DNA from: a virus
Lineage: Duplodnaviria; Caudoviricetes
Length of the DNA: 64,000 bases
Virus record (IMG/VR): IMGVR_UViG_3300021431_000075
Coordinates: 544,001 to 608,000 of that record
Direction: 5' to 3' (one strand)
The notes under the pieces were generated by a model. It had not been told where the DNA came from and ran no database searches. It saw nothing but the letters and a program-made list of their open reading frames with translations. Each line of letters starts with the position of its first letter. The stretch's first letter is position 1. Both the position numbers and the translations under genes were made by a program. This document shows positions 18,850 through 60,342 of this stretch, piece after piece.

Positions 18850-18892
18850 TTAATAAAAAATGCATTTTGTTTATTTATTGCACAAAAAAAAA
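18769..18892 (-). repeat. Promoter plus leader module, copy 2
   Basis: Reverse complement of 17242..17365. Confidence 0.85.
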
Positions 18893-18919
18893 ACAAAATC
18901 GAACAATCTTTGTAGATAT

Positions 18920-22003: not shown

Positions 22004-22078
22004 TTATTGATTAACCGGTGTCATTTCGATTGAATTGTCTTCAAAATCTGCATCCTTTATGATTACAATCTTTCCCAT
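22004..22078 (-). CDS. Micro-ORF MGKIVIIKDADFEDNSIEMTPVNQ (24 aa)
   Basis: Manual translation; one of four homologous micro-ORFs, similar to the N-terminus of 59791..60342. Confidence 0.65.
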   Translation of the reverse strand: MGKIVIIKDADFEDNSIEMTPVNQ

Positions 22079-22141
22079 GAAAACTTTGCTACATATGTTA
22101 TTTTAAAATGATTAAAACAAGAGTGTTAGTATTTTTAACGA

Positions 22142-22252
22142 TTGTTTCTAAACAGGTAAGTTTCAGTTAGTTACAACTTCATATAATGCTATTGTGAACA
22201 AATTGAAGTCTTTGAAACCCAGCAAGATGCAAACTTACCTGTTTAGAAACAA
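22142..22252. repeat. Switch locus 1: 22-bp perfect inverted repeat with 67-bp spacer
   Basis: TTGTTTCTAAACAGGTAAGTTT (22142-22163) and AAACTTACCTGTTTAGAAACAA (22231-22252). Confidence 0.95.
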
Positions 22253-22277
22253 ACTTCTAAAAATAAGAGTGCAATCG

Positions 22278-22352
22278 ATGGGAAAACTTTTGATTATCAA
22301 AGATGCAGACTTTGAAGAAAATTCTATTGAAAGAACACAGGTAGAACAATAA
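22278..22352 (+). CDS. Micro-ORF MGKLLIIKDADFEENSIERTQVEQ (24 aa)
   Basis: Manual translation; lies directly upstream of the 22373 gene. Confidence 0.65.
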   Translation: MGKLLIIKDADFEENSIERTQVEQ

Positions 22353-22372
22353 AATAACTTCCGTATCAAGAC

Positions 22373-24442
22373 ATGGGTAATCCAATCATAACGACAATAA
22401 ATGTTGAAGATGTTCCATATAAGATTAAGGGTTCATTGTATGATGGACTTGGCAACAATACAGATGGTGGTATCACGCAGGCTGCAATAACTTCTGAGTT
22501 GAATAGCATCAATGAAACCATAGACAACATCGAGCACAACAATACATTGGAATATGAAGAAAGCATCGTCATTTTAGACAATCTGGATGCATCTGTTGTT
22601 GAGATTACGTCAAGTTATGTTAATGCAAAGAATCTGAAGTCTAACGGTATTGATGTTGCCACGCTTGAAGATATCAGCACATTTGCATCAATAGATGACA
22701 TTAACGATAAACAAGACAAGATAGACAATATCGGTTATGAAGAACTTAACTTCCAAACACCGACAATAGAATTCAGGGATGATAATGATAATTATGTCGG
22801 GGAAGTTTCTCCAGAGGCAATCGCAGCAAAGAAGTTCTTAATCAAGACAAGTCCGGAAGATATTGGGGTGGACATAAGCGGTATTGTTGGCGGCACCACA
22901 GTTGCAAAGACGCTCGGGTTCAGTGACATTGTCCATGTCATCGGTTACGGTCAGTCTCATATGTCCGGCACAAACAGCGGACTCCCGGTATCGACAACAC
23001 AAAACAGGGCAAATCTTAAAAGATTTGCAGGTGGAGTCAGACCGTATGATACATTTGACCTTGATTCAAGCCGTAGAGTCATTATCGAACGTCAATCTGG
23101 TGTCGAACCTACATATCTTGAAATGTCTGACAATAAAAGCGCATGCTTGACGCAAAAGTCCATCAACTATATTGCTGCATCTGTTGATAGTCTTGTTCCA
23201 TTGACAGAGCAGAGAGTAAAATATGAAAAGAACCAAAATAACACATACAGTCCGAATCCTTCTGTAATAAATGCATCTACATCTGGACATGCGGACGGAG
23301 AGACTCCATTGACCGGTTTCTGCGAAGGTTTCTTGAACGCGATTGAGAAATCATACGGAAACAATTTCGGATTTGAAATGCTTGCTACTTGCTGTGCTTA
23401 TGGTTCTGCTGATTTCCTGAGCCTTTGTCCGCTTGACAGAGATGGCATTATTCATAACGAAAAAGAAATAGACGGGACGAACTTCAACTACTTTGACGTT
23501 TTGATGATGACTGTCAAGGAAGCAAAAGAACTTGCAGATGCAGAGAATAAGTCATATTCTGTTGATGTGGTCATATATATGGAGTCGAATACGATAGCTG
23601 AAAACCGTAGTGGAACTTCTGTTAGTTTGACCGTTCAACAGAAAGCATACAGAATCGCGCAGCTTTTCACGCTCATTAACCAGAGAGTCAAAGAAATAAC
23701 AAAGCAAAGCAATGATATAATATTCTTATGTGACCAGAGCAAGACATATATGTCACAGAGAGAAGCCATACGCATTCTTTGTATCGACAAAGAATTTGCT
23801 TTGACGGAAGCTGAACAGAACGTACTGGAGACTTTGACGAACAATGATATTGAACCATACGACATGAACAAGATTTATCTTGTTATCGGTTCCAATAACT
23901 ATGAAATCGGCACTGACCACATTCATCATCCATCATATGCACAGAAACTTGAAGGAGCAACAATCGGAGAGATATATGCAAGGATTCTCTCAAGAAATAA
24001 TTTCGAGCCTTTGTATCCAATAAAGTTCAAGGTGATTGACAATGATATCTATGTCAAATATCATGTGCCTGTTTCTCCAATCGTAATAGACATGAATGCA
24101 GTGAACGGAGCGCATACTTGTCCGAACTGGTGTACAGAACGTGGTGAAATGTACGGTTTCTCAATCTTCAACAAGAATACATCTACTTATGAACCGAATT
24201 TCATCACTGCTGCGGAAGTGACAGAAGGAGATACTATTAAACTCACGTGTGAAAGTTCTCCTGTTGGTAAAGTTCTTGAATACTGTTATAAGCCTATTGA
24301 CAATAGTGGTAGTGGTTTGCCAACGAATTGCGAGTTCGGCAATGTCAGAGACTCGCAAGGAGATATTGCAAAAATCACAATCAACAACACAGAACATCCA
24401 TTGCATAACTGGTCAATCGGCTTCTCAAAAGATATAATGTAA
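22373..24442 (+). CDS. Cassette 1R: virion-type protein with a sialate O-acetylesterase-like (SASA/SGNH) domain
   Basis: Shared N-terminus YKIKGSLYDGLGNNTDGGITQAA; GYGQSH and DHIH motifs; C-terminal GNVRDS...LHNW typical of phage SASA-like tail proteins. Confidence 0.7.
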   Translation: MGNPIITTINVEDVPYKIKGSLYDGLGNNTDGGITQAAITSELNSINETIDNIEHNNTLEYEESIVILDNLDASVVEITSSYVNAKNLKSNGIDVATLEDISTFASIDDINDKQDKIDNIGYEELNFQTPTIEFRDDNDNYVGEVSPEAIAAKKFLIKTSPEDIGVDISGIVGGTTVAKTLGFSDIVHVIGYGQSHMSGTNSGLPVSTTQNRANLKRFAGGVRPYDTFDLDSSRRVIIERQSGVEPTYLEMSDNKSACLTQKSINYIAASVDSLVPLTEQRVKYEKNQNNTYSPNPSVINASTSGHADGETPLTGFCEGFLNAIEKSYGNNFGFEMLATCCAYGSADFLSLCPLDRDGIIHNEKEIDGTNFNYFDVLMMTVKEAKELADAENKSYSVDVVIYMESNTIAENRSGTSVSLTVQQKAYRIAQLFTLINQRVKEITKQSNDIIFLCDQSKTYMSQREAIRILCIDKEFALTEAEQNVLETLTNNDIEPYDMNKIYLVIGSNNYEIGTDHIHHPSYAQKLEGATIGEIYARILSRNNFEPLYPIKFKVIDNDIYVKYHVPVSPIVIDMNAVNGAHTCPNWCTERGEMYGFSIFNKNTSTYEPNFITAAEVTEGDTIKLTCESSPVGKVLEYCYKPIDNSGSGLPTNCEFGNVRDSQGDIAKITINNTEHPLHNWSIGFSKDIM

Positions 24443-24452
24443 AAATTAAGAT

Positions 24453-24983
24453 ATGAAACTTATATTAAAAAATAGCAATCTTGTATTTGCGCAAGGAATT
24501 CAGGATCTAACGATTCCAATACAACAAACAACCGGCGAAATGTATTATGTTGCAAATGCCCGTTCGACAATCGCTTGGGATAATTCGGATCCTTCTAATA
24601 AAGCAATCACAGCCGGTAGCAAATATCAACGTTCACAAGTAATAAATGTAGAAAGAACAAAATACAATGCTTTCAAGATTGTCACGTCGAATCCTAATGA
24701 CGTTACGACATATGCATGGATAACATTCGCTGGTTCTCAAAAAGGACAAAGAACTTATCAATCTTCTCCATTGACAGTCAACACAAAGCATGACTTTCGA
24801 GATTCTACGAAGTTCGTTATAGATTCTAAAAGACAATCATTAGACAGTGCTATTAGTAGCATAGATGGTTGTGCAGGAGAAATAGTGCATCAATTCGCAA
24901 TCAGTCTCAAAAACGACGGAACTGCGCCGTCGATGACTGCTGAAGAATTTAAAGCAATAACTATTGTTTTGATGGCTGAATAG
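24453..24983 (+). CDS. Small companion protein of cassette 1R
   Basis: Starts 10 bp after the cassette; MKLILKNSNLVF N-terminus. Confidence 0.7.
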   Translation: MKLILKNSNLVFAQGIQDLTIPIQQTTGEMYYVANARSTIAWDNSDPSNKAITAGSKYQRSQVINVERTKYNAFKIVTSNPNDVTTYAWITFAGSQKGQRTYQSSPLTVNTKHDFRDSTKFVIDSKRQSLDSAISSIDGCAGEIVHQFAISLKNDGTAPSMTAEEFKAITIVLMAE

Positions 24984-25003
24984 TTAAAAACAATATAAAA
25001 TAC

Positions 25004-25038
25004 GAAACCCAGACTTCTATCAAGAAATCTGGGTTTCT
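25004..25038. terminator. Bidirectional intrinsic terminator
   Basis: GAAACCCAGACTTCT...AGAAATCTGGGTTTC between convergent genes. Confidence 0.7.
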
Positions 25039-25069
25039 TCTTAATCGACCGGAATCTTTGGTTAGTTGA

Positions 25070-26338
25070 TTAGCTCTCGGAAGTCAGCCTGATTGAGTAG
25101 TACTTCTTCCCGGCGAACTTCTTGAATATACTCGTATCCGCAGTCGAGTTATGAACGCCGCGTGTTCCTTCTGTGAACTTGATGAAGAACTCCTTGTTTG
25201 CATTCATGTCAAATTGGAAGTGCTCGAGGATGGTCTGCTGGAACTTCTGCGATGAGATTGTGAACGTAGTAGGCTCGCCGTTCTTGTGGTTTCTGCCATA
25301 GATGCTGAGTCTCGCAATCTTCTTTGACTTGTTAGGAGCGTGTGTGCGGTTTTCCTGCTCCGTGAACACCATGTACATCGCGCCGTCCTTCCCGTCCACG
25401 AGAGTCACGTGCGTGAAATGATTTTCTATCATATCAGCGCCGAACTCTCTGTCCACCACCATCGGAGCGATGGTTCCGTTGCTGCGTACTCGGATTTTCA
25501 TCATGTTCGAACCGCCTGCAACCTTTGCATATGACTGGTTCTTGAACGGAGTTCCGCGACGCTTCTTGCGCTCGCTGATCGGAGTGTCGCAGTCGTACTC
25601 GTCTGCCGGAATATCGTTGGAAACAGTCACAGTTTCGGCAGCGGAGTCAGCGGCTTCTTCCGGAACATAGTTCTTGAACGAGTCCTCAAGCACGCTTGCG
25701 ATGCGATGAGGCTTCAGGAAACCGTTGAAGTGAGTCTGGTTGACCGTAACCTGCTTGGTGTTGCGGAAGTTGAAGCGAGGAGAGAAACCGCGGCACTTAC
25801 CGAGATATGCATGCACAAGACCTTTCGACATCTTGAGAATGTTCTCGTCCTCTTTGTCGAAGTTGCCTTCAGCCTTTCCTTCAAGAACGTTGTTGATGAC
25901 ATCCTCGCAGTACTTCTGGATAGCCATGAAGTCAAACAGCGGTGCAGGTTCCTTCTTTGCTGGTTCTGCTTCTGCAGTGGACTCTTCAATCTTCTGTTCA
26001 GACTTGTTCTCGTCCACTTCCGAAACGATATTCTGAACATAGTCAGACTGAACGCCTGTGCCGGTCACAGTCTTGATTGCATCGCTCACCTTGTTCTCGA
26101 CCATCGTCTTGACTGCTGTCTTGACTGTCGACACTTCGTCGATAAGAAGGTCTGAAATGGTTCTCATGGTCTCGGACATCTTCGTCATGACCTTGCTTGT
26201 GATTTCGGTTGTAATCTCGGCTACAATCTTGTCTAACACTTCAGTAGGGACTTGGAAAGTCGCCGTAATTTGTTTTGATGTTTCCATTTGGGCTTTTGTT
26301 TTTAGTTGAACAATCGTGTTTTGATTTTCTGCTTGCAA
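25070..26338 (-). CDS. Hypothetical protein (true start may be METSKQ near 26287)
   Basis: Long ORF with core-type codon usage; no motif recognised. Confidence 0.75.
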   Translation of the reverse strand: MQAENQNTIVQLKTKAQMETSKQITATFQVPTEVLDKIVAEITTEITSKVMTKMSETMRTISDLLIDEVSTVKTAVKTMVENKVSDAIKTVTGTGVQSDYVQNIVSEVDENKSEQKIEESTAEAEPAKKEPAPLFDFMAIQKYCEDVINNVLEGKAEGNFDKEDENILKMSKGLVHAYLGKCRGFSPRFNFRNTKQVTVNQTHFNGFLKPHRIASVLEDSFKNYVPEEAADSAAETVTVSNDIPADEYDCDTPISERKKRRGTPFKNQSYAKVAGGSNMMKIRVRSNGTIAPMVVDREFGADMIENHFTHVTLVDGKDGAMYMVFTEQENRTHAPNKSKKIARLSIYGRNHKNGEPTTFTISSQKFQQTILEHFQFDMNANKEFFIKFTEGTRGVHNSTADTSIFKKFAGKKYYSIRLTSES

Positions 26339-26490
26339 ATATATAATGTTTTTTAGAAACCAGCAAGCAATGCAATAAAAAATATTCTAATTTTAGGAAA
26401 CATTAACTATTTCTATTGTTTTTAAATATCAAAAAAGAGAAGCAAAGTTCTTATTTTGCTTCTCTTTCCACAATATGTTGATAATTATAA

Positions 26491-28017
26491 TTATGAAATC
26501 ATCTTGATGTTCTTCTTAAGCATCTGGGTTCGCTTTCCTCCGCGAATCACCTCGACTAAGTCATCTGGTTCCACAGCCTGCGTATATGACGTCGGGTTGA
26601 TTCTGATTTTCCTGAGCGGCTCGTCCGAATCAATATCGGTCTCGAAGTCGTCGTTGTCAACCATGACAGCCCAAGGCCACTGCTCGACCGGCACGACAAT
26701 CTGGCTCATCGGCAGCACGGCGTACTCTCCGTCCTCATTGACCACATGCACGTTTTCCTTGCACTCGTTGATGTCCTTGAGACTTGCATAGTACTTCTGG
26801 AAGTTCAACTTCATACCGTTTGCAACGATGTCGCATTCAACAGTACGGTCGTTCAGGTCCTTGTAGTCCCTCGTGTAGTCGTACTTGTCGTTCTCGACCG
26901 GGTTGTTGATTCTTGTTTCCGGATTCAGGTCGAACCTTGAATAGTACTTGTCATTATAATCAGTGTTTCCCCATCTCGTGTTCAGCAGATATGTCAGGTC
27001 CGGCTTGATGTCCTTTGCCACGAACTCGAACGTCTCTCCCTGCACCATGACATATACGAACTGTCCGCCGTCGATAATGTCCCTGACAGAAGTCACGGTT
27101 CCGCTCATGTCATATCCGTCTATGTTCACGACAACCCTGTCATATGGCTCGTACATAATCTCGTTCGCCGGTGTGTTCCTGACCTCGTTCAGATAGCTTT
27201 CAAGCATCGCTCTGTGAACATTCGGCAGGTTTATTCTTGGCGCAGCGCTTTCTTGCTGCTGCTGGTCTAATGCTCCCACTGTTCCGTCCTTTTTTTGTTT
27301 GTCTTCTATTTCTTGCTGGAAATTGTTCTCGTCAGATGTTCCGTACTTCGCTTCCTTGACCTTGACGCTCTTTGCAAAGATGCCGTCAGTGCCGAGCTTG
27401 TTTCTACGAATCACTTTGATGTTCTCGTTGATTCCAGTCTCGTTCACGAGCGCGGTCCTGTCCATCGTGTTCTCGTATGATTTGCCGGTCAGGGAACTCA
27501 TGATGCTTGAAACAACGAACAAGCAGTCATCCCGGTTCTTGTAGTCAACAGAGTCAAGCAGTTCATCTATGTTCTCGTAGCTGTACTTGAAACTGTCGAA
27601 CGAGACGCCCGGAACACCGTTCTCGATATCAGAAGCGATTTGTCCGAACTCGTCAGTGTCTCTATAGTAGATTTCCTGACCTATCCTGTACACCGTGTAG
27701 CTCTCGTCTCCCATCGAGATTGAGAAGTTCAGCGGAACCGTAGTTCCGCCAAACTTGTTCACTATCTCTGACACGATAACATGGTTTCCGTCGGCATTCG
27801 CGTTGGCAGCGCACGCGTTCGCTGCATAGTTCATCGCCGAGAGCGTGTCTGCCTGCTTGTTGTCGTAGTACTCGATAGGATCGCCGTCATACTGTCCGGT
27901 CGTAAGATCGCCGGCTGTTCCGTAGCCGGGCTTCTCGATGTCGGAACCACCAACATGAACATTGAGTCCGAGATTGTCCATCTCGCTCATTCTCTTTGAT
28001 TTTTTGGTAGCCTTCAT
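26491..28017 (-). CDS. Hypothetical acidic protein (508 aa), probably structural
   Basis: Directly downstream of the 1248-aa gene. Confidence 0.75.
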   Translation of the reverse strand: MKATKKSKRMSEMDNLGLNVHVGGSDIEKPGYGTAGDLTTGQYDGDPIEYYDNKQADTLSAMNYAANACAANANADGNHVIVSEIVNKFGGTTVPLNFSISMGDESYTVYRIGQEIYYRDTDEFGQIASDIENGVPGVSFDSFKYSYENIDELLDSVDYKNRDDCLFVVSSIMSSLTGKSYENTMDRTALVNETGINENIKVIRRNKLGTDGIFAKSVKVKEAKYGTSDENNFQQEIEDKQKKDGTVGALDQQQQESAAPRINLPNVHRAMLESYLNEVRNTPANEIMYEPYDRVVVNIDGYDMSGTVTSVRDIIDGGQFVYVMVQGETFEFVAKDIKPDLTYLLNTRWGNTDYNDKYYSRFDLNPETRINNPVENDKYDYTRDYKDLNDRTVECDIVANGMKLNFQKYYASLKDINECKENVHVVNEDGEYAVLPMSQIVVPVEQWPWAVMVDNDDFETDIDSDEPLRKIRINPTSYTQAVEPDDLVEVIRGGKRTQMLKKNIKMIS

Positions 28018-28035
28018 TTTACAAACCGTTCAGAT

Positions 28036-31000
28036 TTACTTTCTCACCTTCTTAATGGAAAGAATAGAGCGCTTCTCGTTGATTCTCTTGCCGGAGCGTC
28101 TTCTCTTGTAAGACTCTGGAATTACGTCATCGAGTTCGATGTTCTCGTCCGCATCCTCGGCTTCATCGTCAGATGCATTTCCGATTTTCTCTGCTGGAAC
28201 CTCAATCTCTGTTCCCTCTGCATCCGTATAGGTATCAACCGGATCTGTCGCTGTGTCAACCGATGCATCGACTGCATCAACTGCATCGACATCGTCGCCA
28301 AGGTCTCCGAAAATGTCTCCGAAATCAAAGTCATCCTCGTCGTCAAGACCGTCTATCTCCAAGTCCTCGTCGCCGTTGTCGTCAATTTCGATGGTTTCGG
28401 TGTCATCAACATCTGCTGGCGGAAGATTGTCATCATCGTTCTCGATTCCTGCTGCAGCATCAACCTCGTCAGTGTCGATGTCGAAGTTCACGTCATCGTC
28501 AGTATCTTCTTCGTCCCCGATAGTGAAGATGCCCTTGTCCTCGTCGTTGCCATCCTCGATGTACTCATTCTCCCAGTCATCGTCGTTTCCGCCTGCATCA
28601 ACAGTCTTGATGTCATCCGTCACTACCGCATCAGCAGAAGAAACAGTAACGCCGTTGGCGCATACGTCTGCATACTGAGGATGCGAAGTAATCGCGTTGA
28701 TGATAGAATTGTACATAGAAGTGGACATCTTCTCATTCATATCGAGAATAGGAGTGTTATCATCTCCGCTCAAATAGAACTTGATTTCAACATTCTCGAC
28801 ATCCTTCGAACCGTCCGCTGTAATAACAGGCTTCAGTACGAGAACAGTTCCGGACTTCATCACGGTCGAGTTCTTCACGTTGCCGTCGAACATCACGTTC
28901 ACGATGCTGTAGTCCGGCGTCTCTACATGAGGATTGAAGAGTTCAGTATCAACTTCCTTATTCAAGTCAATCGGGTCTTCCACGTCGCCGCCGAATATGT
29001 CAGTCGCCTCGGAACCTTCTTCGTCAGTCTCGCCGGTCTCTGCATCGACAGTTTCCATTCCGGCAAGATTGTCATTGTTTTCCTCGCCGAAGTCATCACC
29101 TATGATAATGTCCTCGTCGCTTGGAACATCTTCTGCAGCAGGCTCGTCGGAAATCTCATCATTTCCTTCTTCATCAGTCTCGTCAAAGATGTCGTCGCCG
29201 TCAACATACTCATCGCCAAGTTCTTCCGCATCAACTTCTGTCTCGGCAGGCTCGTCGTCAAGATTGTCAACATCTTCTGTATCGACTTCTTGGAACTCCT
29301 CGTCATCGGTTGCATCAGAGCCGTCTTCGATGTCATTGACAATATCATCAACCTCTTGGTCTGATACGGAATCAGTGTCTTCAGCAGGCTCGTCATCGCC
29401 GCCGTACTGTGTTGCAAGGCTGTTGATTGCTGCCGTGTCTGCATCTGTAACGCCGTCTTCTTCTGCGTTTCCAGAACCAGCACCGTCAAGATAATCATCA
29501 AACTCTGCATCGGAAATCTCTCCGGTAGCATCATCTGCATCATACTCGCCATCAGCAGTAGAACCGTCATAGCCGGCAGGGATTTCAATATCTTCGTCGC
29601 CGGTCACCTTTTGAACAGGCTGCGAGAGTTCGTCCTTCATCGCTTCTGCCTCATCTGCGGAAACAGGCTCGTTGCTTGTCTCTGTCTTCGTGTTCTCGTC
29701 ATCTTCCTCGTCGTCATCATCGGACTTCTTTGTTGCAAGAGCCTCGTCGTTGTCCTTCTGCCACTGCTTGTACTCATCCTTGATGTCCTTGAGTTTCTGC
29801 TTGGAATCGTCAATCATGTCAGTGATTTCCTTCTTAATCTCATCTGTCGTCGCTTCTTCCTTTGCAGCCTTCAGGTCCTCGATTGCCTGAGTGTACTCTT
29901 CAATGGACTTCTCGTACTCGTTCTTGGTCTCGTTCAGGCGGAGAATAATCTTGTCCTGATTAGGAAGCAAGTCTCCGAACAGACTTGAAACGTTGATGCC
30001 CATATGCTCGTTGAGCGTGTTCTTGCAGAATATAGGATTGACATTCCTATAGAACGTGTGCTTCATGAGAGCGTTGTTGTGAGTAGCCATGTAGATGTTC
30101 TCGTCAAGCTTGAACAAGTCAGCGGTGATGTCCGTGTTGCTGTTCAGCGAAATGTGCTTAGCCCAGTCGATTCTTGCGATGTTGTTGAAGTTCTCAAGCA
30201 GGCAGGAACACATGATGTAGAAGTTCGTGTCATAGTTGTCATACTTGATGCACATCTCGTCAAGACGGCGCAAAGACTCTCTGTCTTCCTTGTATCCGTT
30301 GATGTCAACATAGCCTTCATAGATAGTCGCGCTGTAGTCTGTTCCGATGAGGTCGATGTGGTCGTCGCAGATATGAACATGAGGATCGTTCACGAGATGA
30401 CAAAGTTCCACGAACCTTTCATCCAAGTGGCTGATGTACTTCTTGTCAAGAACAGACATGATGTTGCCTTTCTTCACGAAGTACTGTCCGTTCACGTTGA
30501 AGATTGACTCGTTCTCCCTGATGTACTGGACAGGAGTGTAGATTGGAGAAACAGTCGCGTTCTGGCGGATGATGTCAATCTCTTCCTTGATGGAGATAGC
30601 CTTCTCTGAAATGCTGTTAGCCTTGATTGAGTCGGACTGATAAATCACGTCGAACATCGCGCTGATATAAGGATCGTGCGCGTAAGGCATCAACGCATTG
30701 CGGAGCTGAACTCTGTTTGTCGCGTTAGGGTTCAGAACATAGCGCGCTACGTCTTCCTGAATGAGCTCTACATATATATAAGATGAGTAAGAGTCTCTCA
30801 TCTCCTCAAGCAGCTTGGTGAGCGCGATGCTCTCCTGATTCTTCTCGACCACCTTCTTGATGTCCTTTCTCATCTTGTCAACAGGAAGCAGGTAGTTGTA
30901 CATCGAAGTGTTCTGAAGCAGAGTCTCGTAAAGACGCTCCTCATATGCTCCGTTGGCAAGAGCGTTTGCATACTCGGAAAGAACATTCTTCAACTTGTCG

Positions 31001-31782
31001 TTATTGCCGGCATCAGATGCAAGAACGCTCTTGATTCTCTTTGCAAGATTAAGACCGTTGTGGTTGGCTATGCCGGTCAGAGAGAACTTCTCGTTGATGT
31101 GGTTCTTCTTGATTTCGCTCTCGTTGAGTCTCTGGTCGATGTACCTCTCGACCTTCTTGAAAATGTTGTTCGTCAGCTTCTTCTGCTTGAACTCGTCACG
31201 CTTCCTTTCGATTTCTGCCTGCTGCTGCTCGTTCACGACCTCTCCGCCGAATAGGTAAGGTCTCTCGTTCGCAGTTTCCGTAATGTTCACGATGAACATG
31301 TCTGCGAGACCTGGGTTGAAGTTGCGGAGATTGTCAATCTCCTCAAGAAGCTCGTTGCGTGTCTCGTCGCAAGGTTCTGCGATGTAGCGGTTGTAAGACT
31401 CGCGCACAGACTCGCGCACGTACTCGTCATTGATGTCCTCAATGAGCTTGAAGCCGCAGAGCTCTGTGAAGTTCTCGTCAAGAATGTTGTCCATCTTCTT
31501 AAGAACTTCCTTGACGTTCTTGTTGCCGGTCGAGAACTGGCGCAATCCAGTGCCGAAAGACTCGAACATCATGAACTGCTTGCCGCCATGCTTGATTCTC
31601 TCGTCATAGCGCATCAGGTAGGACATAAGGCTCGGATTCTTCTTGCCTTCTCCAAGCAGACCGTCGATGTATCGCTGGATGTTGAACACGACAGAACCGT
31701 CCGGAGTGTCGTTCATCTCGTTCTGAATGGATTCAGTGATAATCTGGCGAATCGACGCCTTAACATCTTCATTTTTATCCAT
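28036..31782 (-). CDS. Large protein with coiled coil and very long Asp/Glu-rich region; possible head scaffold/core protein
   Basis: 1248 aa; the C-terminal ~550 aa are D/E-rich and end in a basic tail; ATAAATA at 31824..31830. Confidence 0.7.
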   Translation of the reverse strand: MDKNEDVKASIRQIITESIQNEMNDTPDGSVVFNIQRYIDGLLGEGKKNPSLMSYLMRYDERIKHGGKQFMMFESFGTGLRQFSTGNKNVKEVLKKMDNILDENFTELCGFKLIEDINDEYVRESVRESYNRYIAEPCDETRNELLEEIDNLRNFNPGLADMFIVNITETANERPYLFGGEVVNEQQQAEIERKRDEFKQKKLTNNIFKKVERYIDQRLNESEIKKNHINEKFSLTGIANHNGLNLAKRIKSVLASDAGNNDKLKNVLSEYANALANGAYEERLYETLLQNTSMYNYLLPVDKMRKDIKKVVEKNQESIALTKLLEEMRDSYSSYIYVELIQEDVARYVLNPNATNRVQLRNALMPYAHDPYISAMFDVIYQSDSIKANSISEKAISIKEEIDIIRQNATVSPIYTPVQYIRENESIFNVNGQYFVKKGNIMSVLDKKYISHLDERFVELCHLVNDPHVHICDDHIDLIGTDYSATIYEGYVDINGYKEDRESLRRLDEMCIKYDNYDTNFYIMCSCLLENFNNIARIDWAKHISLNSNTDITADLFKLDENIYMATHNNALMKHTFYRNVNPIFCKNTLNEHMGINVSSLFGDLLPNQDKIILRLNETKNEYEKSIEEYTQAIEDLKAAKEEATTDEIKKEITDMIDDSKQKLKDIKDEYKQWQKDNDEALATKKSDDDDEEDDENTKTETSNEPVSADEAEAMKDELSQPVQKVTGDEDIEIPAGYDGSTADGEYDADDATGEISDAEFDDYLDGAGSGNAEEDGVTDADTAAINSLATQYGGDDEPAEDTDSVSDQEVDDIVNDIEDGSDATDDEEFQEVDTEDVDNLDDEPAETEVDAEELGDEYVDGDDIFDETDEEGNDEISDEPAAEDVPSDEDIIIGDDFGEENNDNLAGMETVDAETGETDEEGSEATDIFGGDVEDPIDLNKEVDTELFNPHVETPDYSIVNVMFDGNVKNSTVMKSGTVLVLKPVITADGSKDVENVEIKFYLSGDDNTPILDMNEKMSTSMYNSIINAITSHPQYADVCANGVTVSSADAVVTDDIKTVDAGGNDDDWENEYIEDGNDEDKGIFTIGDEEDTDDDVNFDIDTDEVDAAAGIENDDDNLPPADVDDTETIEIDDNGDEDLEIDGLDDEDDFDFGDIFGDLGDDVDAVDAVDASVDTATDPVDTYTDAEGTEIEVPAEKIGNASDDEAEDADENIELDDVIPESYKRRRSGKRINEKRSILSIKKVRK

Positions 31783-31865
31783 TTGTTATATATGATTTTT
31801 CTTATTTTTCTGCTTTGTTGAATTATTTATTTAGACAAAAATATGTCAAAATATAGAATTTTTGT

Positions 31866-33251
31866 CTAAATTATTGTAATCCAGTCACTTACGACTTTAT
31901 TCTCTTTTTGATAATGATCCTTGACAATCAGTCTGATTCTCTTTGCATCAATATTGTTGTTATACACAAAACACTCAAAATCAACAGGATTCATCTCATC
32001 AACCATGAAATTGTAGAGATTGACAGTTATGTCATGCTCCTCGATCATGTCATCCTTGTTCAAGAAAGACATGACAGCGGGAACCTTGTAGTTCGGCGAC
32101 GGAGCGATGAAGAAGCCGCGCGACTTGACATAGACGTTCTCCGGCTCCACAAGATGGGTTGACGGATCCGGAATGACAGATATTTCCGGCTGGCTCGTCA
32201 CAGTCACAGTATCCGTGTTCGGAATGATGACATCTATGCGTCCGTTGTCTGTCAGGTCGTCCGGAATCCTCAGGTGGTACATGTGATGATTGTCAATCGA
32301 GTCGAGAAGATATTCTGTGTCGTCGCCCTCGACCTGATAGCAAATATCGACAAACAGCAAGTCACGGTCCATGTATGTCTCGTACCACTCGATGAGAATG
32401 TCCTGACCCGTCACGAGAACCATTCCGGCAAAGTCTGTTTTCCAGACAATCGGACCAGTCCTGTTCGGATGCACTTCCTCGTCCTTGTGGTTATTCACCC
32501 AGATGTTCGCTCCGATGTTGTTGATAGAGCAGTCTGCCGGCGTTTCTGTATACGGATCGAAAACCGGCTGGTATGTCTCGCATTGTAGCGAAAGTGACAG
32601 TTTTATCCAGAGTTCGCCCGGAGCCTGTCCTGTCACAAAAGAAGAACCTTGCGAGCTGAGCTGCGTTTCAGGGAAACCGACACGGCACGGGCATACAGTC
32701 CCGCGGTAGTTGAAATGGAAAGTCTTGACCTTGTAGAAGTACTCCCTGATTGCCTGATCAATCTTGAAGGCAGTCAGCATCGTGTCGCATCTTATTTCAA
32801 GGTTGAACTGGAACTGCAGAGGCATCGAGTATAGATAAGAGACGTATGTCTTGAGCTTTCCGTCCTCGAACTTCGTGAACCTTCCCATAGAAAACCTGTT
32901 CGTTATGCTTCCGGAATCTATGCTGACAGATGCAAGCGAAAGCCTTCCCTGCGGATAGAAGTCGAAGTTTCCGTCAATCTTCTTGAGACCAATCGACGTG
33001 CATTCGTCTGACGTGAAGAACGTGTAGTTGTCCTGAATGAACCTCTCGGAGTTGATGTTGCTGCCGCCGAAGTCATAGAAGAAAGGGACAGTGACGTTCT
33101 GGATGCCGCCGTTCTCTTCCGACCATACCTGCTGATACACAAGCTTGCGGTTGAGGATGCGCAGGAGACCCATGATGACCTCTCTGTCAAACACGTCTGT
33201 TGTGTTCCTTCTCTCGAACAGCTGCTTTGGTGTTAAAACCGTCTTTGACAT
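31866..33251 (-). CDS. Tail completion / sheath stabiliser (T4 gp15-like)
   Basis: VTVPFFY, YPQGRLSLASVSID, MPLQFQFNLEI and IREYFY resemble the gp15 family; ATAAATA at 33277..33283. Confidence 0.6.
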   Translation of the reverse strand: MSKTVLTPKQLFERRNTTDVFDREVIMGLLRILNRKLVYQQVWSEENGGIQNVTVPFFYDFGGSNINSERFIQDNYTFFTSDECTSIGLKKIDGNFDFYPQGRLSLASVSIDSGSITNRFSMGRFTKFEDGKLKTYVSYLYSMPLQFQFNLEIRCDTMLTAFKIDQAIREYFYKVKTFHFNYRGTVCPCRVGFPETQLSSQGSSFVTGQAPGELWIKLSLSLQCETYQPVFDPYTETPADCSINNIGANIWVNNHKDEEVHPNRTGPIVWKTDFAGMVLVTGQDILIEWYETYMDRDLLFVDICYQVEGDDTEYLLDSIDNHHMYHLRIPDDLTDNGRIDVIIPNTDTVTVTSQPEISVIPDPSTHLVEPENVYVKSRGFFIAPSPNYKVPAVMSFLNKDDMIEEHDITVNLYNFMVDEMNPVDFECFVYNNNIDAKRIRLIVKDHYQKENKVVSDWITII

Positions 33252-33345
33252 ATAATGTACTATTGATATTATAAGATATTTATTAGAAATTTAGCCACAT
33301 AATGAAAACAAAATAAATATCTTATAATAAATTCCGTTTCCGAAA

Positions 33346-34815
33346 ATGAAGATAAATGAAAGTCTTTTCGACGAAGTGAATCCGGATGAAGTGAACGATA
33401 CCGAAGAAAACAAATTCGACACTTCAGGGATGCTGATGCTGAATATACACATGCTCAAGAGAAGCAAGAAAGAGGTTCCGCCCCGTGTTCTTCGCGGCTT
33501 TAATGAGGTGATGTACAACATTTCTATGCTGTTCTCGCTGGATGTGGACTTTGATAATATGAAACGCGCTCCGATAGAAATCTATTATAAGAACGGAGAT
33601 TCATTACACACCACAGACAGTTATGACAAGAGAGACTTTCCATATACAAGGGACAAGACAAAATGCCGTCTTGACAACTATTCTTTCTTCACAATCAGAT
33701 ATGACTACTTGAAGATAAATTTCAGCAATGTCGCCAGCATTTCAAAATTCCTGATAAAACTGTTCATCAGACTCCAGTGTGTGACGAACAACGTGTATGA
33801 CATAACGTTCAGAACATATGACAATAGGTTTGACAAGAAAGACATATTCCTGTTCACGCTGAATCCGATTGCGTTCTATCAGATTTCGTCAGACTATGAC
33901 TACTATAGAAGAACTATCTTTCCGAAATGTATGACAAGCCTATATAAGATGCTTCTCGGCTGGAGTGCAAGCAAGATTCCCGATGAAGATGCGAACGACC
34001 AAATTAACTATACGAATATCATCAACTATATGATTTCGTCAAACATTGCAAGCAATTTCGTTAGATTCAACTTGCTAAATACAGTTGATAAAAACAATAT
34101 CATCGAATGCAGATCCATGCAATTGCATAATCAATCACAAGGTGATTGTTTGGAGTTGGAAATTAAAGGCATCAATATCAAGAACATATTGAACAAGAAT
34201 GGAGATATATTTCCATTATGGTTCACGAATATTATGAAAATGTACAGATGTGAAGGATTTGTGAAAGTCGGCTTGCTATCGTTATCGTATGAAAAAGGCG
34301 ACATATTCGTGAATGGAGAGTTGAACCCGAGAATAAAAATATCATATGTAAACAGTCAAGATATCGGAAAGACATTCTTCTTTGAGACCGGAGACAACAA
34401 CACGGCATATAACATATTAAGATTAAGCGACTATACGCTGCTATCAAAGAAATGGTTCAATTCAGTGCGTTATTGCCAGAATTCCGGACTGTTCGTTATA
34501 AAATGCGGAACTGCACTTTCATATGCATATATGACCAAAGATGGAAAAATCGTTAATAACAAGTGGTTTAAAAACATAACAGATTTTAATCTTGCCGGCT
34601 ATGCTGTCGCGTCAATGTGTGAGAATGAATACTATATAATTGACAAGAATCTAAAAAGAATGAGCCAGAACTACTACTCGATTACAAACTTGGTTTCTTC
34701 TTATTCTTATGATAAAAATGCGAATGAAGCGATATTCAAAGTTGTAAGGGCATCTGATAAGAAAACGAACTTTTTGATGAATGACTTTAGTCTTAAGAAT
34801 GAAGAATGGATGTAA
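33346..34815 (+). CDS. Hypothetical protein with C-terminal WG-like beta repeats
   Basis: Repeats SKKWFNSVRY, NNKWFKNITDFNLAGYAVA and KNEEWM; MKINE leader; ATAAATA at 33313..33319. Confidence 0.6.
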   Translation: MKINESLFDEVNPDEVNDTEENKFDTSGMLMLNIHMLKRSKKEVPPRVLRGFNEVMYNISMLFSLDVDFDNMKRAPIEIYYKNGDSLHTTDSYDKRDFPYTRDKTKCRLDNYSFFTIRYDYLKINFSNVASISKFLIKLFIRLQCVTNNVYDITFRTYDNRFDKKDIFLFTLNPIAFYQISSDYDYYRRTIFPKCMTSLYKMLLGWSASKIPDEDANDQINYTNIINYMISSNIASNFVRFNLLNTVDKNNIIECRSMQLHNQSQGDCLELEIKGINIKNILNKNGDIFPLWFTNIMKMYRCEGFVKVGLLSLSYEKGDIFVNGELNPRIKISYVNSQDIGKTFFFETGDNNTAYNILRLSDYTLLSKKWFNSVRYCQNSGLFVIKCGTALSYAYMTKDGKIVNNKWFKNITDFNLAGYAVASMCENEYYIIDKNLKRMSQNYYSITNLVSSYSYDKNANEAIFKVVRASDKKTNFLMNDFSLKNEEWM

Positions 34816-34836
34816 TGTTTGATGTGACAAAATAAG

Positions 34837-34869
34837 AAAAACCCAGACTTCTTTGGAAGCCTGGGTTTT
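34837..34869. terminator. Bidirectional intrinsic terminator
   Basis: AAAACCCAGACTTC...GAAGCCTGGGTTTT; related in sequence to the 25004 hairpin. Confidence 0.7.
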
Positions 34870-34889
34870 ATTTTTGTCGCTTTGATAAT

Positions 34890-37385
34890 TTATCTACAAG
34901 TTTTTATAAATTCTGAAATTATTCCAGCATATACTTTATTTGCATCTCCACTAATATCAATATGCGGATGAACGCCGTCTTGATTATAAAGTCTAAAAAC
35001 ATTACAACCTGTGTTATTGTCAATGCAGTCGTTTGCTACACTTGGTCTTCCTTGTGACGATGGATATAATTCAAGAAAGTATTCTTTTGCAGTAGGAATA
35101 ATATGATTGCTGAAACCTAAATACTTATATACTTCACATAGTGGGAAAGCCCAGCTTTTTGCTATTGATTCTTGCGCTGAAATTATTGAAGAATATGAAG
35201 GTCTATCCCCGTTTTCATATTCATAATTGCTAATAAAAACAATTCTTGCCTTTGGTTTCCAAGACAAAATAACAGTAACAATGAAATTGATAGAACCGAT
35301 GTAACAATTTCTGTTAAGACTTGCTGCAAATGATGCAATATTTGATTCGCCAACTCTTTGAATCAATTTCGCTCCGTCGCCAATCGTATTATTTAAATCA
35401 TTTCTAATATTCAAGAAATAAGCAAGTCTTTCATAGTTATTTGCAGTCATAAATGAATCTTCAGCTAAAATACTATTCGATATATTCTCAACAGTTGGCT
35501 CTAATATTATATCTGGTGTGTCGTCGGAAAGTTTATAATATGTTTTGAAATCATTATGACCGTGATCAATGACAAATAAATCTGGAATCAAACCATTTGG
35601 GTTCTTTGTTGTGACAGTTCCTTCTAAATACGGCATAAGTTTATCTTCAAAACTTGACACTCTTAGTCTTGCAATGTCATTATTATCCAACACAAAGCCG
35701 GTGTTATTGAAATTGGAATCCGTACCATTGATGATATTTTCTATTTCTTGTTTTGTCCTTGACAAACATGATGTACAGTTATCTTTATTGATACTAACAT
35801 AGTCACCAGTCCTTACGTTTGCTCTACACATAGAAGAACCGACAGATTCATTGAAAATAGTAGCATTTAAATTTATACCAACTTCTTTTGGGTAATTACC
35901 AGCGACAGTTTCTTCAGTTCCCAATGCTGAATCTTTTCCGGCAGGAATAGACGTACCACACCACCAAATCGACTTATTATTCCAGTAATTTGAATGTCCA
36001 ATATTTGATATGTTTTCTTGCAATTCTGCTATATTTTCTGTATTTGTGTCTATTAAGTCAAATTTGCTTATTTTTTGTACGAATACAATGCTTATAATTT
36101 TTACAGTACTTGCATATAGTTTGCAATCTGTATTTTGAGCAGCAAATGTATAAGTATCATTAGAACCAGAATTGCACCAATCTATGACAATGCCGGCATT
36201 TGTAGTCAATGCCATTCCATAAGAACCGGACTTAATTATGTTTAAAATGACTTTCGTGTTTGCAGGAACATCATAGATTCTATAACTCGATGATGTTAAT
36301 TCCTTTAGATTTACTTGCGAACCTTTTGTTTGAGTTCCGTAAACATAATAACCGCCAGTTTGCTGATATATATCTGTATTGTTTGTTACATCTTTTGTTA
36401 TTTCAGATGAAGCTGATTCCTTATCCAAATATTTAGCGTCACTTTCTGATTTGCTATAAAATTGTTTAGTTAACTTGATGATATTTCTACAAGAAGCACT
36501 TGTTGTTGAACCTTCAACATATATTTTAATTGTGTTTGATGGAATTTCAAATATAGTCGGTTCTTCATATGCAATTCCAAGTTCTCCAAATATAGCCGTA
36601 TCTTGATTGGATGAATCAAAACAAATCATAATAGGGCTATTGCTATTGTTAGGTTGTTTTCCTGTAATTGCAACTTTGGTAGTTCCTTGTTCTAATGCAT
36701 ATTCAAGAACAGTAAAATCTTGATTTGTGCTAATCTTGTTTGTTGTTGTTATATTCGTGCAATATTGTGGATATGATGTTGTTGGAGTTATTTCTGTTCC
36801 AATTTCTTCTTCACTTAAATCATCAATCAATGAAGTTATTTTTTCATTTACTGTAACATCAGCATCCATCAAAGTTTCAATTCTTTCTTTGATTGTCTCT
36901 GATGAATTTATTACTTCTATTTTTACTACTTTATTTAATAATGCATGTATATAACCTGTAGATGAAATTGGAGCAAATTCATGACTGCCGCCATCTGTTG
37001 AAGTTACAAATTCTTTTACAATATCAGAACTATCAGTTAATACGAATCCGTAATTGCCAGTAGTGAGATATTCCAGTTGAACTTTGCAATTTGCTGGTAT
37101 TTCATATCTCTTGACATTATATGTAGTACTTCCGGGTGGTACAATTGCGATTGTTTGACCGACTACTTGGGTTTTAGAAGGATAACCAGAATAACTTACA
37201 CTTTCAGCAAGCGGAATAGTTATATTGTCAAAATGCAACTGCTTATCAATTTCTTCAAATTCATTAGTCAATGCAGCCTGCGTAATGCCACCATCTGTAT
37301 TATTGCCAAGTTCATCATAAAGAGTTCCTTTTATCTTATATGGAATATCTTGAATGTTTATTGATGTTACGATTGGATCGCCCAT
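34890..37385 (-). CDS. Cassette 2L: virion-type protein with a C-terminal SGNH hydrolase
   Basis: MGDPIVT...YKIKGTLYDELGNNTDGGITQAA N-terminus; WCGTS, VGSS, DHGHND and DGVHP motifs. Confidence 0.75.
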   Translation of the reverse strand: MGDPIVTSINIQDIPYKIKGTLYDELGNNTDGGITQAALTNEFEEIDKQLHFDNITIPLAESVSYSGYPSKTQVVGQTIAIVPPGSTTYNVKRYEIPANCKVQLEYLTTGNYGFVLTDSSDIVKEFVTSTDGGSHEFAPISSTGYIHALLNKVVKIEVINSSETIKERIETLMDADVTVNEKITSLIDDLSEEEIGTEITPTTSYPQYCTNITTTNKISTNQDFTVLEYALEQGTTKVAITGKQPNNSNSPIMICFDSSNQDTAIFGELGIAYEEPTIFEIPSNTIKIYVEGSTTSASCRNIIKLTKQFYSKSESDAKYLDKESASSEITKDVTNNTDIYQQTGGYYVYGTQTKGSQVNLKELTSSSYRIYDVPANTKVILNIIKSGSYGMALTTNAGIVIDWCNSGSNDTYTFAAQNTDCKLYASTVKIISIVFVQKISKFDLIDTNTENIAELQENISNIGHSNYWNNKSIWWCGTSIPAGKDSALGTEETVAGNYPKEVGINLNATIFNESVGSSMCRANVRTGDYVSINKDNCTSCLSRTKQEIENIINGTDSNFNNTGFVLDNNDIARLRVSSFEDKLMPYLEGTVTTKNPNGLIPDLFVIDHGHNDFKTYYKLSDDTPDIILEPTVENISNSILAEDSFMTANNYERLAYFLNIRNDLNNTIGDGAKLIQRVGESNIASFAASLNRNCYIGSINFIVTVILSWKPKARIVFISNYEYENGDRPSYSSIISAQESIAKSWAFPLCEVYKYLGFSNHIIPTAKEYFLELYPSSQGRPSVANDCIDNNTGCNVFRLYNQDGVHPHIDISGDANKVYAGIISEFIKTCR

Positions 37386-37405
37386 TTCTTAATACGGAAG
37401 TTATT

Positions 37406-37480
37406 TTATTGTTCAACCTGTGTTCTTTCAATAGAATTATCTTCAAAATCTGCATCCTTGATAATCAAAAGTTTTCCCAT
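37406..37480 (-). CDS. Micro-ORF MGKLLIIKDADFEDNSIERTQVEQ (24 aa)
   Basis: Manual translation; differs from the 22278 copy by synonymous changes and one E/D substitution. Confidence 0.65.
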   Translation of the reverse strand: MGKLLIIKDADFEDNSIERTQVEQ

Positions 37481-37504
37481 TGATTGCACTCTTATTTTTT
37501 AGAA

Positions 37505-37617
37505 ATTGTTTCTAAACAGGTAAGTTTGCATCTTGCTGGTTTTCAAAGACTTCAATTTGTTCACAATAGCATTATATGAAGTTGTAACTAACTGAAACTT
37601 ACCTGTTTAGAAACAAT
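37505..37617. repeat. Switch locus 2: 23-bp perfect inverted repeat with 67-bp spacer
   Basis: ATTGTTTCTAAACAGGTAAGTTT (37505-37527) and AAACTTACCTGTTTAGAAACAAT (37595-37617). The whole region ~37392..37729 is an inverted near-copy of ~22029..22366. Confidence 0.95.
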
Positions 37618-37679
37618 CGTTAAAAATACTAACACTTTTATTTTAATCATTTTAAAATAACATATGTAGCAAAGTTTTC

Positions 37680-37760
37680 ATGGGAAAGATTGTAATCATA
37701 AAGGATGCAGATTTTGAAGAAAATTCAATTGACATTCATCAAACATCATCAGAACAATAA
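37680..37760 (+). CDS. Micro-ORF MGKIVIIKDADFEENSIDIHQTSSEQ (26 aa)
   Basis: Manual translation; lies directly upstream of the 37781 gene. Confidence 0.65.
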   Translation: MGKIVIIKDADFEENSIDIHQTSSEQ

Positions 37761-46768: not shown

Positions 46769-47545
46769 TTAATTATGCTCTATATGGAAATAAGTGTCTA
46801 TGTTTGATTCATTCAAAACAAATGTTACATCAACTGTTTGCGCTGCACTTCCATAAGCAGCCATGTTCAAAGCGAAACCGCCGCCTGTTGATGGAAGATA
46901 ACTTGACAAGTCGATAACTGTTTCTACTGTTGCACTACCTTTCCATTGCGAATCTCTTGAAATTTCTGTCAAATCATTTCCGGTTGCATAACAAACTCTG
47001 ACTTTATATCCGGGCGCTACATAAATCGTATAGTTGTTATCACTAACTGCTGTCAAGCATTTGGTAGTAGTTCCTTCAACCGTATCATACCATCCATATA
47101 TCTTGTTGTAATAAGTATCTGTTGAAGTATAAACTTTGAATTTTTTATCCGTTCCCCAACTACCGGTTACTGAAACGATATTGTGTTCTTCATAGAATGA
47201 AACATGTTCTTCTACTGCAATTGTCTTAGTGGCAGAAATCAATGAATTATAAACAGACGTTGCACGGATAACAATACTTTGCGCACTTCTATTCATATCA
47301 ATCGTCAAAACGCCATAACTGTTGATAGACGCGATTTCGCTTCCTTCTACAATGCTCCATTCGACGTCGGTTTCTTCCGTGTTGGCAGGATTGTAAACTA
47401 TACTATATTCAACGCTTGTCGTGTTGCTTGATATAGTTGAAGGTCCATCAATGCTTATGCTTTCAACACGACCTGCCAAGAAAGTTACTTGTCCCAAGTT
47501 ATTATTTGAGAAATCCAAATCGGTCACTTTTATCGCGATACCCAT
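46769..47545 (-). CDS. Small companion protein of cassette 4L with an Ig-like (Big_2) domain
   Basis: MGIAIKVTDLDFSNNNLGQVT N-terminus; VESISIDG...YNPANTEETDVEWS...ASINSYGVLT Ig-like pattern. Confidence 0.75.
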   Translation of the reverse strand: MGIAIKVTDLDFSNNNLGQVTFLAGRVESISIDGPSTISSNTTSVEYSIVYNPANTEETDVEWSIVEGSEIASINSYGVLTIDMNRSAQSIVIRATSVYNSLISATKTIAVEEHVSFYEEHNIVSVTGSWGTDKKFKVYTSTDTYYNKIYGWYDTVEGTTTKCLTAVSDNNYTIYVAPGYKVRVCYATGNDLTEISRDSQWKGSATVETVIDLSSYLPSTGGGFALNMAAYGSAAQTVDVTFVLNESNIDTYFHIEHN

Positions 47546-59790: not shown

Positions 59791-60342
59791 ATGGGAAAAG
59801 CGTTAATTATCAAAGGTGCTGATTTTTCTGCACACTCAATAGGTCCAATTCAAAGAATCGTTCAAATGGAATTTGAGCAGTCAAACATTATGTACAGACA
59901 GAGTGACTGCGGTGTTTATCCAAAACCGTCTGCGCAAGACCAAGTAGTTCTTCCGAAACGATGCAGAACAACAAATGGTACATTGATAGAAGTTGCACCA
60001 AACCAGACCATCACCATCAGCGGTTTGAAAGATCTATTTTATCGAATATTCGAATATCAGGCTTATACAAATGGAGCCGATGAATACAAAACAAATTATG
60101 CATTCACTGGAATAAACTATGGAACTTGGACTGACAATGTTTCAAATTGCTTAACTCCATATGTTTCCAGTTCTACAGATTCGAATATTGCATCAGGCTC
60201 AAGCGTGAACACAATAACTTATACAAATACACATGAAATGACAGTATATATTGGAATGCGTGTTGGCTGGAATGTTGACAGCGGAAAGAACGACACTAAC
60301 ATCTTGCCTGAGGAAATATCAGTGTTCGTTGAATATGATTAA
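59791..60342 (+). CDS. Small companion protein of cassette 5R
   Basis: MGKALIIKGADFSAHSIG N-terminus, homologous to the micro-ORFs. Confidence 0.75.
   Translation: MGKALIIKGADFSAHSIGPIQRIVQMEFEQSNIMYRQSDCGVYPKPSAQDQVVLPKRCRTTNGTLIEVAPNQTITISGLKDLFYRIFEYQAYTNGADEYKTNYAFTGINYGTWTDNVSNCLTPYVSSSTDSNIASGSSVNTITYTNTHEMTVYIGMRVGWNVDSGKNDTNILPEEISVFVEYD

Follow-up and report, generated by a model that had tools for sequence, protein, structure and literature searches.

Free-standing micro-ORFs derived from the N-terminus of accessory fibre proteins, very probably selected coding genes, in the fibre-switch arms of a megaphage

Here we analysed a stretch of 64,000 nucleotides (nt), called the window from here on, which corresponds to positions 544001-608000 of the 673,114-bp virus record IMGVR_UViG_3300021431_000075 (direct terminal repeats; 40.6% G+C), and in particular four very short open reading frames (micro-ORFs) lying in it between recombination sites and tail-fibre genes. 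The window encodes the large terminase and many tail-fibre-like proteins, with matches to Phage_fiber_rpt, phrog_4201, Laminin_G_3, GDSL lipase and beta-helix. A repeat search showed that the fibre genes are arranged as divergent pairs flanking short inverted-repeat sites, and that these sites belong to two related classes, A and B. The class A site has the core TTTCTAAACAGGTAAGTTT and is present in six copies per genome, forming three pairs, two of them inside the window, each with a 67-bp core, and the third 5.5 kb past it, around a 1.7-kb segment. Class A switch 1 (22132..22262) consists of two 32-nt inverted repeats (22132-22163/22231-22262) around its 67-bp segment, and in switch 2 (37496..37626; repeats 37496-37527/37595-37626) the repeats are the same and the 67-bp segment is inverted. 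The 1.7-kb segment of the third switch encodes a tyrosine recombinase of 330 amino acids (aa) (Phage_int_SAM_5 plus Phage_integrase; phrog_1) and also carries two AGATAAATA motifs, both facing one repeat.

An earlier, sequence-only reading of this stretch had placed four micro-ORFs between the class A sites and their large genes, and detailed examination found them at exactly those positions, each flanked by an inverted-repeat site and a fibre gene. Micro-ORF 1 (22004..22078, minus strand; 24 aa, MGKIVIIKDADFEDNSIEMTPVNQ) is of the MGKIVII type, lies in a long arm and ends 22 nt before the ATG at 21981 of fibre cassette C1 (19078..21981, minus strand; 967 aa, Phage_fiber_rpt), and on the other side of switch 1 micro-ORF 2 (22278..22352, plus strand; 24 aa, MGKLLIIKDADFEENSIERTQVEQ), of the MGKLLII type and in a short arm, ends 20 nt before the ATG at 22373 of cassette C2 (22373..24442, plus strand; 689 aa, phrog_4201 tail fibre). 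Around switch 2, micro-ORF 3 (37406..37480, minus strand; 24 aa, MGKLLIIKDADFEDNSIERTQVEQ; MGKLLII type, short arm) ends 20 nt before the ATG at 37385 of cassette C3 (34890..37385, minus strand; 831 aa), and micro-ORF 4 (37680..37760, plus strand; 26 aa, MGKIVIIKDADFEENSIDIHQTSSEQ; MGKIVII type, long arm) ends 20 nt before the ATG at 37781 of cassette C4 (37781..40750, plus strand; 989 aa, Laminin_G_3 at the C-terminus). A genome-wide motif scan added two more past the window, at genome positions 613452 (minus strand) and 615308 (plus strand), which flank the third class A switch, so that the genome has six micro-ORFs; with the related metagenome contigs there are 18 distinct arms.

The order of the elements in these arms is invariable: class A site, spacer, micro-ORF, 20-22 nt, fibre ATG. 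Short arms combine a 27-nt spacer with an MGKLLII... peptide, and long arms a 65-nt spacer with an MGKIVII... peptide. Every intact micro-ORF has an ATG start and a TAA stop and is 24, 25 or 26 codons long, all indels being in frame. The gap of 20-22 nt between its stop and the fibre ATG is found in all intact arms, that of the diverged phage L012 included, and the final residue before TAA is Q in all of them but L012. The N-terminal 17-18 residues are conserved, and the C-terminal 6-9 residues and the length vary. Predicted tryptic peptides of the micro-ORFs include DADFEENSIER, DADFEENSIDIHQTSSEQ and LLIIK-containing forms. In the class B arms the fibre ATG lies about 40-50 nt past the site, with no micro-ORF between them.

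Relatives of the locus were gathered through three routes, namely a metagenome scan with the 19-nt site (used as the query to avoid selecting for the micro-ORF), look-ups of fibre homologues and look-ups of recombinase homologues. In the scan, 11 of the 14 matches were at the level of chance. No match to the locus was obtained by blastn among GenBank phages, nor to a degenerate micro-ORF pattern in IMG/VR; a looser K-D-x-x-F-E-E-N-S pattern gave six chance matches inside unrelated ORFs, and a profile of the fibre N-terminus matched only distant fibres (sharing the common LY..G.NTDG..TQ motif) that lack the micro-ORF. The micro-ORF is kept, with conservative changes, in the diverged phage L012 (MGKLLIVKDSDFEENSVEQTEVQPL) and in L036 (MGKVVIIKDESFEENSVDYIPEIEQ and MGKLLIVKDSDFEENSVDYIPEIEQ), the recombinase of which is 84% identical. 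It is missing from the L045 switch, which has a 57%-identical recombinase and a similar site, and this points to acquisition of the mini-gene in the class A arm of this clade.

The sequence-only reading had also proposed that frameshifts or stops be sought in the homologous copies, and the outcome was divided: 17 of the 18 copies are intact, and one has both a premature stop and a frameshift. This decayed copy (L035:2662-2700, minus strand) reads MRRIIINDVDFK up to its stop and lies before an intact 1031-aa fibre gene. It has undergone a codon deletion and five non-synonymous changes, followed by the stop and then the frameshift, and its spacer and gap are still conserved, which shows that loss of the micro-ORF is rapid once selection lifts and that the cassette can manage without a copy of its own.

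Differences in the conserved core had been described in the same reading as largely synonymous or conservative, and comparison of the copies shows that this holds far beyond chance. In the 18-codon core, of which there are 14 distinct versions, the minimum numbers of changes at the first, second and third codon positions were 7, 2 and 23 (binomial P about 1e-5 for the excess at position 3). The dN/dS-type comparison across homologues that had been suggested as a check was made on six sequence-disjoint pairs, whose phylogenetic independence is incomplete, and gave 35 synonymous against 12 non-synonymous differences (proportion of synonymous sites changed, pS, 0.59; of non-synonymous sites, pN, 0.045; pN/pS 0.076). 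Within arm types the mean pairwise difference was 0.17-0.235 at codon position 3 and 0-0.016 at positions 1+2, with the spacer in between at 0.03-0.09, so that the wobble positions of the micro-ORF are freer than the adjacent non-coding spacer and positions 1+2 far more constrained. The micro-ORFs thus carry the marks of purifying selection on the peptide sequence, namely synonymous excess, in-frame indels and conserved start and stop, and they are very probably protein-coding genes under selection.

Other explanations were tried and rejected. An antisense ORF sharing the third positions is open across the core, but it has no conserved start and its stops are scattered differently in each arm. 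An RNA structure or attenuator in the arms was discarded, folding being no better than that of shuffled sequences (z-scores -0.45 to +1.49). Fusion of the peptide to the fibre by frameshift, read-through or hopping of the T4 gene 60 type is excluded, since the arms are not alike in their frame relation and several of them have no landing codon. The two ATGs, of micro-ORF and fibre, lie 95-101 nt apart, with all three frame relations represented, and the landing CAA is missing in at least four arms.

The arms contain further features. The spacers between site and micro-ORF (window 22164-22277 and 37481-37679) differ by just 3-9% between paralogous arms; they vary much less than the micro-ORF wobble positions and must therefore have a DNA- or RNA-level function of their own. 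A -7 box of the Bacteroidota type, TAAGTTTG, lies at window 22230-22237 (minus strand) and 37521-37528 (plus strand), assembled from the innermost bases of the repeat and one base of the 67-bp core, the first G at its GCATC end; the box is oriented across the core toward the long-arm cassette and has no well-spaced -33 TTTG. Sigma-70-type promoters were no more frequent in the arms than chance predicts (4 against 3.3 expected).

The alternative junctions in metagenome contigs are direct evidence of recombination at the class A sites in nature. The 3' end of the recombinase gene adjoins C5 in this genome, C2 in L023 (193-3492) and C4 in L027-L029 (L027:574-4799). In L025 (2620-3040) C4 lies opposite a 1028-aa fibre across a 21-bp core instead of one of 67 bp, and in L033 (2740-2980) two short arms are opposite each other. 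The micro-ORF stays on the fibre side of the site in all these junctions, and the arm whose micro-ORF has the tail EMTPVNQ carries another fibre in L031 than in this genome. Inside the recombinase-bearing invertible segment, related phages have an IS605-type TnpB gene, and a resolvase and TnpB pair lies also downstream of the C4 companion gene described below (L036:2693-3946; L025:7801-8949).

The motif with which the micro-ORFs begin had been said to start larger genes as well, and this is the case for three genes of the window that are companions of fibre genes: the companion of C4 (40797..41666, plus strand; 289 aa) and two companions of class B fibres, one at 46769..47545 (minus strand; 258 aa, starting MGIAIKVTDLDFS) and one at 59791..60342 (plus strand; 183 aa, starting MGKALIIKGADFS). 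The 5' end of the last is 70% identical at the DNA level to micro-ORF 2 over 53 nt, and this gene was the only full-length one that the repeat search grouped with the micro-ORFs (family D5). None of the three window companions had a match in Pfam or PHROGs. The C4 companion has 76 representative relatives of about 270-300 aa, mostly aligning from residue 1, with the N-terminal consensus M-x-G-I-A-x-I-I-P-x-A-D-F-S-x-S-P-L-G-x-V-T, in which G19 is invariant (71/71 members; alignment A2). In the AlphaFold2 model of the 289-aa protein (predicted local distance difference test, pLDDT, 91.8) residues 1-25 form a loose tail (pLDDT 69-78), predicted to be a docking tail, residues 27-60 are helical and the C-terminal part is a ConA-like jelly roll that matched sialidase lectin domains and CBM40 in a fold search. 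The genes that follow C2 (window 24453-24983, plus strand) and C5 (genome 610915-612021, minus strand) start with MKLILKNSNLVF and MNVIFFPRKDYD, which may be very diverged versions of the same N-terminal motif of hydrophobic strand plus aromatic residue.

The micro-ORF peptide is homologous to residues 2-25 of the companion family (71-member alignment with conserved N-terminus). It retains G3, the hydrophobic strand at 4-8 and A-D-F at 11-13 (G-K-[IL]-[VL]-I-I-K-D-A-D-F), it aligns with family members beginning MGKAIII or MGTAIII, and the I/V at position 18 is also kept. The micro-ORFs stop after their 24-26 codons, and the helical linker and ConA-like domain of the companions (about 270-300 aa in total) are missing. 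They also have a conserved acidic run of their own, KDADFEENS, which is absent from the companion family. The micro-ORFs hence derive from the docking N-terminus of a companion gene, embedded in the class A arm.

The docking role of that N-terminus in the full-length companion is supported by a structural model. A motif DGFYIID..G.I occurs in 2-3 copies in C4, C6, P0004 and B3, precisely the fibres with a companion gene after them, and elsewhere in the genome it has one single match, in an unrelated ORF. C4 has three DGFYIID-type hairpins; C1 has none, C2 no clear one, and C3 has neither hairpin nor companion gene. We modelled fibre C4 residues 1-180 with companion residues 1-110 in a 3+3 set-up with three controls, and obtained scores of 0.74/0.74/0.49 against 0.00 for the best control, with at least 70% of contacts shared between runs and a partner pLDDT of at least 73; in calibration, 58 of the 80 solved complexes and 2 of the 110 mismatched pairs reached the mark for this score, counts that apply only roughly here, given our own alignments and the multi-copy set-up. 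The modelled interface joins companion residues 1-29 to fibre residues 59-90 and 41-56, the hairpin that pairs with the companion motif being encoded by C4 codons 59-90 (37955..38050, plus strand), and the tightest contacts are those of companion 4-8 with fibre FYIID, of F13 with fibre 71-78 and of companion 18-21 with fibre 75-77. The model supports the companion N-terminal motif as a docking strand on the fibre DGFYIID hairpin. The sequence-only reading had proposed a peptide partner or assembly strand for the fibre, and this is supported in part: the motif appears as a modular N-terminal docking element in the full companion, from the tail model and the complex score (0.74 against 0.00). 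Hairpin repeats lie at window 37955-38320 and 48546-48905 (minus strand) and at genome 615404-616000, with one companion gene per such fibre, so that with 2-3 hairpins per fibre some docking layers would have no full-length partner. The Pfam scan of the fibres gave no match to a T4gp10-like branching domain.

Placing these results in a single model, the explanation that accounts for them best is that the micro-ORFs are translated, selected, free docking-strand peptides to which the fibre gene is translationally coupled, a reading that as a whole we would put a little below an even chance. According to it, a 5'-terminal fragment of a companion (accessory lectin) gene would have become fixed in a class A recombination-site arm, and the arm would then have been copied with its micro-ORF to every class A fibre cassette of this megaphage clade. 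The peptide retains the hydrophobic strand together with the D-F turn and the I/V anchor, the elements that build the strand predicted to pair with the DGFYIID hairpin in full-length companions. On transcription of a cassette the first product would be a free, acidic docking-strand peptide, which, while fibres assemble, may occupy docking hairpins, cap them or compete for them. A ribosome that finishes the micro-ORF would re-initiate on the fibre gene 20-22 nt downstream, peptide and fibre being made together, and the constancy of this gap does suggest such coupling. We infer translation, coupling and the target of the free peptide, and the particular step by which the free peptide acts by docking on fibres is a tentative one, possible without being the likelier outcome. 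More speculative still, and in our view rather unlikely, is that the peptides amount to a switch-linked control of virion make-up, in which the cassette turned on by the recombinase would first yield a peptide that caps hairpins or competes for them and so decides which lectin companions, those of class B included, are mounted on the fibres.

Several observations weigh against free docking-strand peptides. The presence of a micro-ORF follows the class A site arm and not the fibre type: micro-ORFs precede fibres of both N-terminal anchor types, with or without hairpins, among them the hairpin-less C1, C2, C3, P0006 and P0007, and they are missing from class B cassettes that share their fibre anchor with class A, from class B fibres that have hairpins and companions (for example B3) and from the switches with a 57%-identical recombinase. 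Micro-ORF and full companion stand together at C4 (37781) and C6 (genome 615404), and the two cassettes having both forms also refute the earlier proposal that the motif is supplied either alone or fused. In the peptide itself, S14 and the invariant G19 of the companion are both replaced by E, and V/I21 of its second strand by T, and, judged from these replacements, the altered and strongly acidic peptide may no longer bind the companion's site. The L035 cassette tolerates its decayed copy, and the constant distance from stop to fibre ATG equally fits a purely cis-acting role.

Such a role is the most serious alternative, although we consider it unlikely. Here the micro-ORF would be a cis-acting upstream ORF (uORF), translated only to load ribosomes on the fibre gene or to regulate it, through termination and re-initiation, protection of the 120-165-nt leader or an effect of the nascent peptide, and the peptide, once released, would serve no further purpose. 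The gap of 20-22 nt in all intact arms, even in L012, speaks for it, as do the tie of the micro-ORF to the site arm and not to a particular fibre type, the unstructured leader RNA and the Q that precedes TAA in all intact arms except L012. Simple coupling, however, needs no conserved peptide, yet the 17-18 N-terminal residues are kept at a pN/pS of about 0.08. Arrest peptides such as TnaC, SecM and ErmCL are constrained near the C-terminus and in their spacing, whereas here it is the C-terminal 6-9 residues and the length that vary, and the class B arms and distant relatives have fibre genes without any uORF.

It is quite improbable, in turn, that the peptide is functional on some other target, such as the baseplate attachment site of the fibre, the switch recombinase or a host protein, its docking-strand ancestry being a matter of origin only. 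The acidic signature KDADFEENS, absent from the companion family, would fit this possibility, and so would the linkage to class A arms only and the presence of the peptide whatever the hairpin content of the neighbouring fibre; against it, no candidate target was found, and the residues retained (hydrophobic strand, F, I/V anchors) are exactly those that make the modelled contacts.

The idea that a truncated companion gene left the micro-ORFs behind as non-functional relics, carried passively by duplication and homogenisation of the arms, has on its side their homology to companion N-termini, the decayed copy before an intact fibre gene and the precedent of truncated remnants that retain a docking peptide in Klebsiella phages (PMC6872550). 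It is nonetheless very improbable and already strained by the substitution pattern, since 17 of 18 copies are intact despite third-position divergence of 17-24% within arm types and a pS of about 0.6 across pairs, the flanking non-coding spacer is less conserved than codon positions 1+2, no change of length breaks the frame, and the single relaxed copy shows how quickly decay proceeds without selection. Last in order, it is scarcely credible that what is conserved is a DNA-level or antisense feature in place of a sense peptide, whether an antisense ORF, an accessory binding site of the recombinase or a homology arm serving cassette exchange. In its favour, the DNA of the adjoining spacers is strongly conserved, different strains combine the same micro-ORF tail with different fibres, and the antisense frame is open across the core; against it, three-base periodicity with free wobble is unexpected for a protein-binding DNA site, and the antisense frame lacks a conserved start and is interrupted by stops whose place changes from arm to arm.

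Free docking-strand peptides, if this is what the micro-ORFs encode, would have partial parallels in known systems. In the branched (anchor-branch) receptor-binding systems of Klebsiella phages KP32/KP34 and of K1-5/SP6/G7C a conserved N-terminal docking peptide is known (Latka et al. 2019, PMC6872550; Latka et al. 2026, PMC13352976). As modelled here, a short conserved N-terminal peptide attaches an accessory receptor-binding protein to a dedicated element of the primary fibre in those systems too. Unlike them, the acceptor in this genome is a repeated beta-hairpin motif with no match to a T4gp10-like domain in Pfam, the phage is a 673-kb megaphage and the peptide occurs also as multi-copy free-standing genes of 24-26 codons. 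Truncated second receptor-binding proteins that keep the docking peptide have been described in KpV767 (69 aa) and KP-Rio/2015 (61 aa) (PMC6872550). Like the micro-ORFs, these ORFs are essentially the docking peptide of a secondary receptor-binding protein; they are single copies in the normal downstream position, read as loss (retrograde evolution), whereas the micro-ORFs are shorter, lie upstream of the fibre in the site arm, number six per genome and are under strong purifying selection.

Two further comparisons concern the position of the micro-ORFs. Leader peptides and uORFs of bacterial operons (TnaC, ErmCL, translational coupling) are short ORFs of the 5' leader at a fixed short distance before the main gene, and in this the micro-ORFs resemble them. 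They differ in having a conserved N-terminus with variable C-terminus and length, no alternative RNA structure and homology to a docking motif, and neither a conserved C-terminal arrest motif at fixed spacing nor an attenuator structure was found in them. Invertible fibre switches and shufflons, in which site-specific inversion picks among receptor-binding genes, are represented by the G segment of phage Mu with Gin, the R64 shufflon and the invertible promoters of Bacteroides with their tyrosine recombinases; the present switches are of this kind, with a tyrosine recombinase inside one invertible segment, but whole fibre genes and not C-terminal exons are brought to a promoter-bearing segment. 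To our knowledge no described switch has a conserved peptide gene in each arm. The literature yielded no multi-copy, selected, free-standing docking peptides of 24-26 codons in fibre-switch arms; docking peptides and truncated docking-peptide remnants are already known, and the selected, multi-copy, free-standing form in switch arms is new as far as the literature was found to go.

Other features of the window can be mentioned briefly. The large terminase (window 14338-17148, minus strand; 936 aa) has a weak Intein_splicing match just before its Terminase_6N domain and may contain an intein. An 80-nt repeat with a hairpin, 96% identical between window 18921-19000 and 46722-46801, lies at the 3' ends of a class A and a class B fibre cassette and looks like a terminator. 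At window 17222-18912, two convergent paralogous genes (17285-17959, plus strand; 18151-18849, minus strand) are enclosed by inverted repeats of 143 nt with 84% complementarity.

Docking peptides serve as handles with which phages, and phage engineers too, hang extra receptor-binding proteins on fibres; in this case such a handle has been detached, has multiplied and persists, under selection, as an independent gene in the switch of one of the largest known phage genomes. Were the peptide to bind, it would exemplify the control of fibre assembly by a natural strand mimic, and modular fibre design would gain a competitor or cap that is ready to use. If it also controls virion make-up, modular receptor-binding assembly would be regulated at the level of a peptide, a kind of regulation of which we know no description in any phage. 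Should the micro-ORFs act in cis only, they would constitute an unusual case of a sequence-constrained upstream ORF in a phage. Either way, genes of 24 codons that fall under annotation cut-offs can be recognised by the comparison of paralogues alone.

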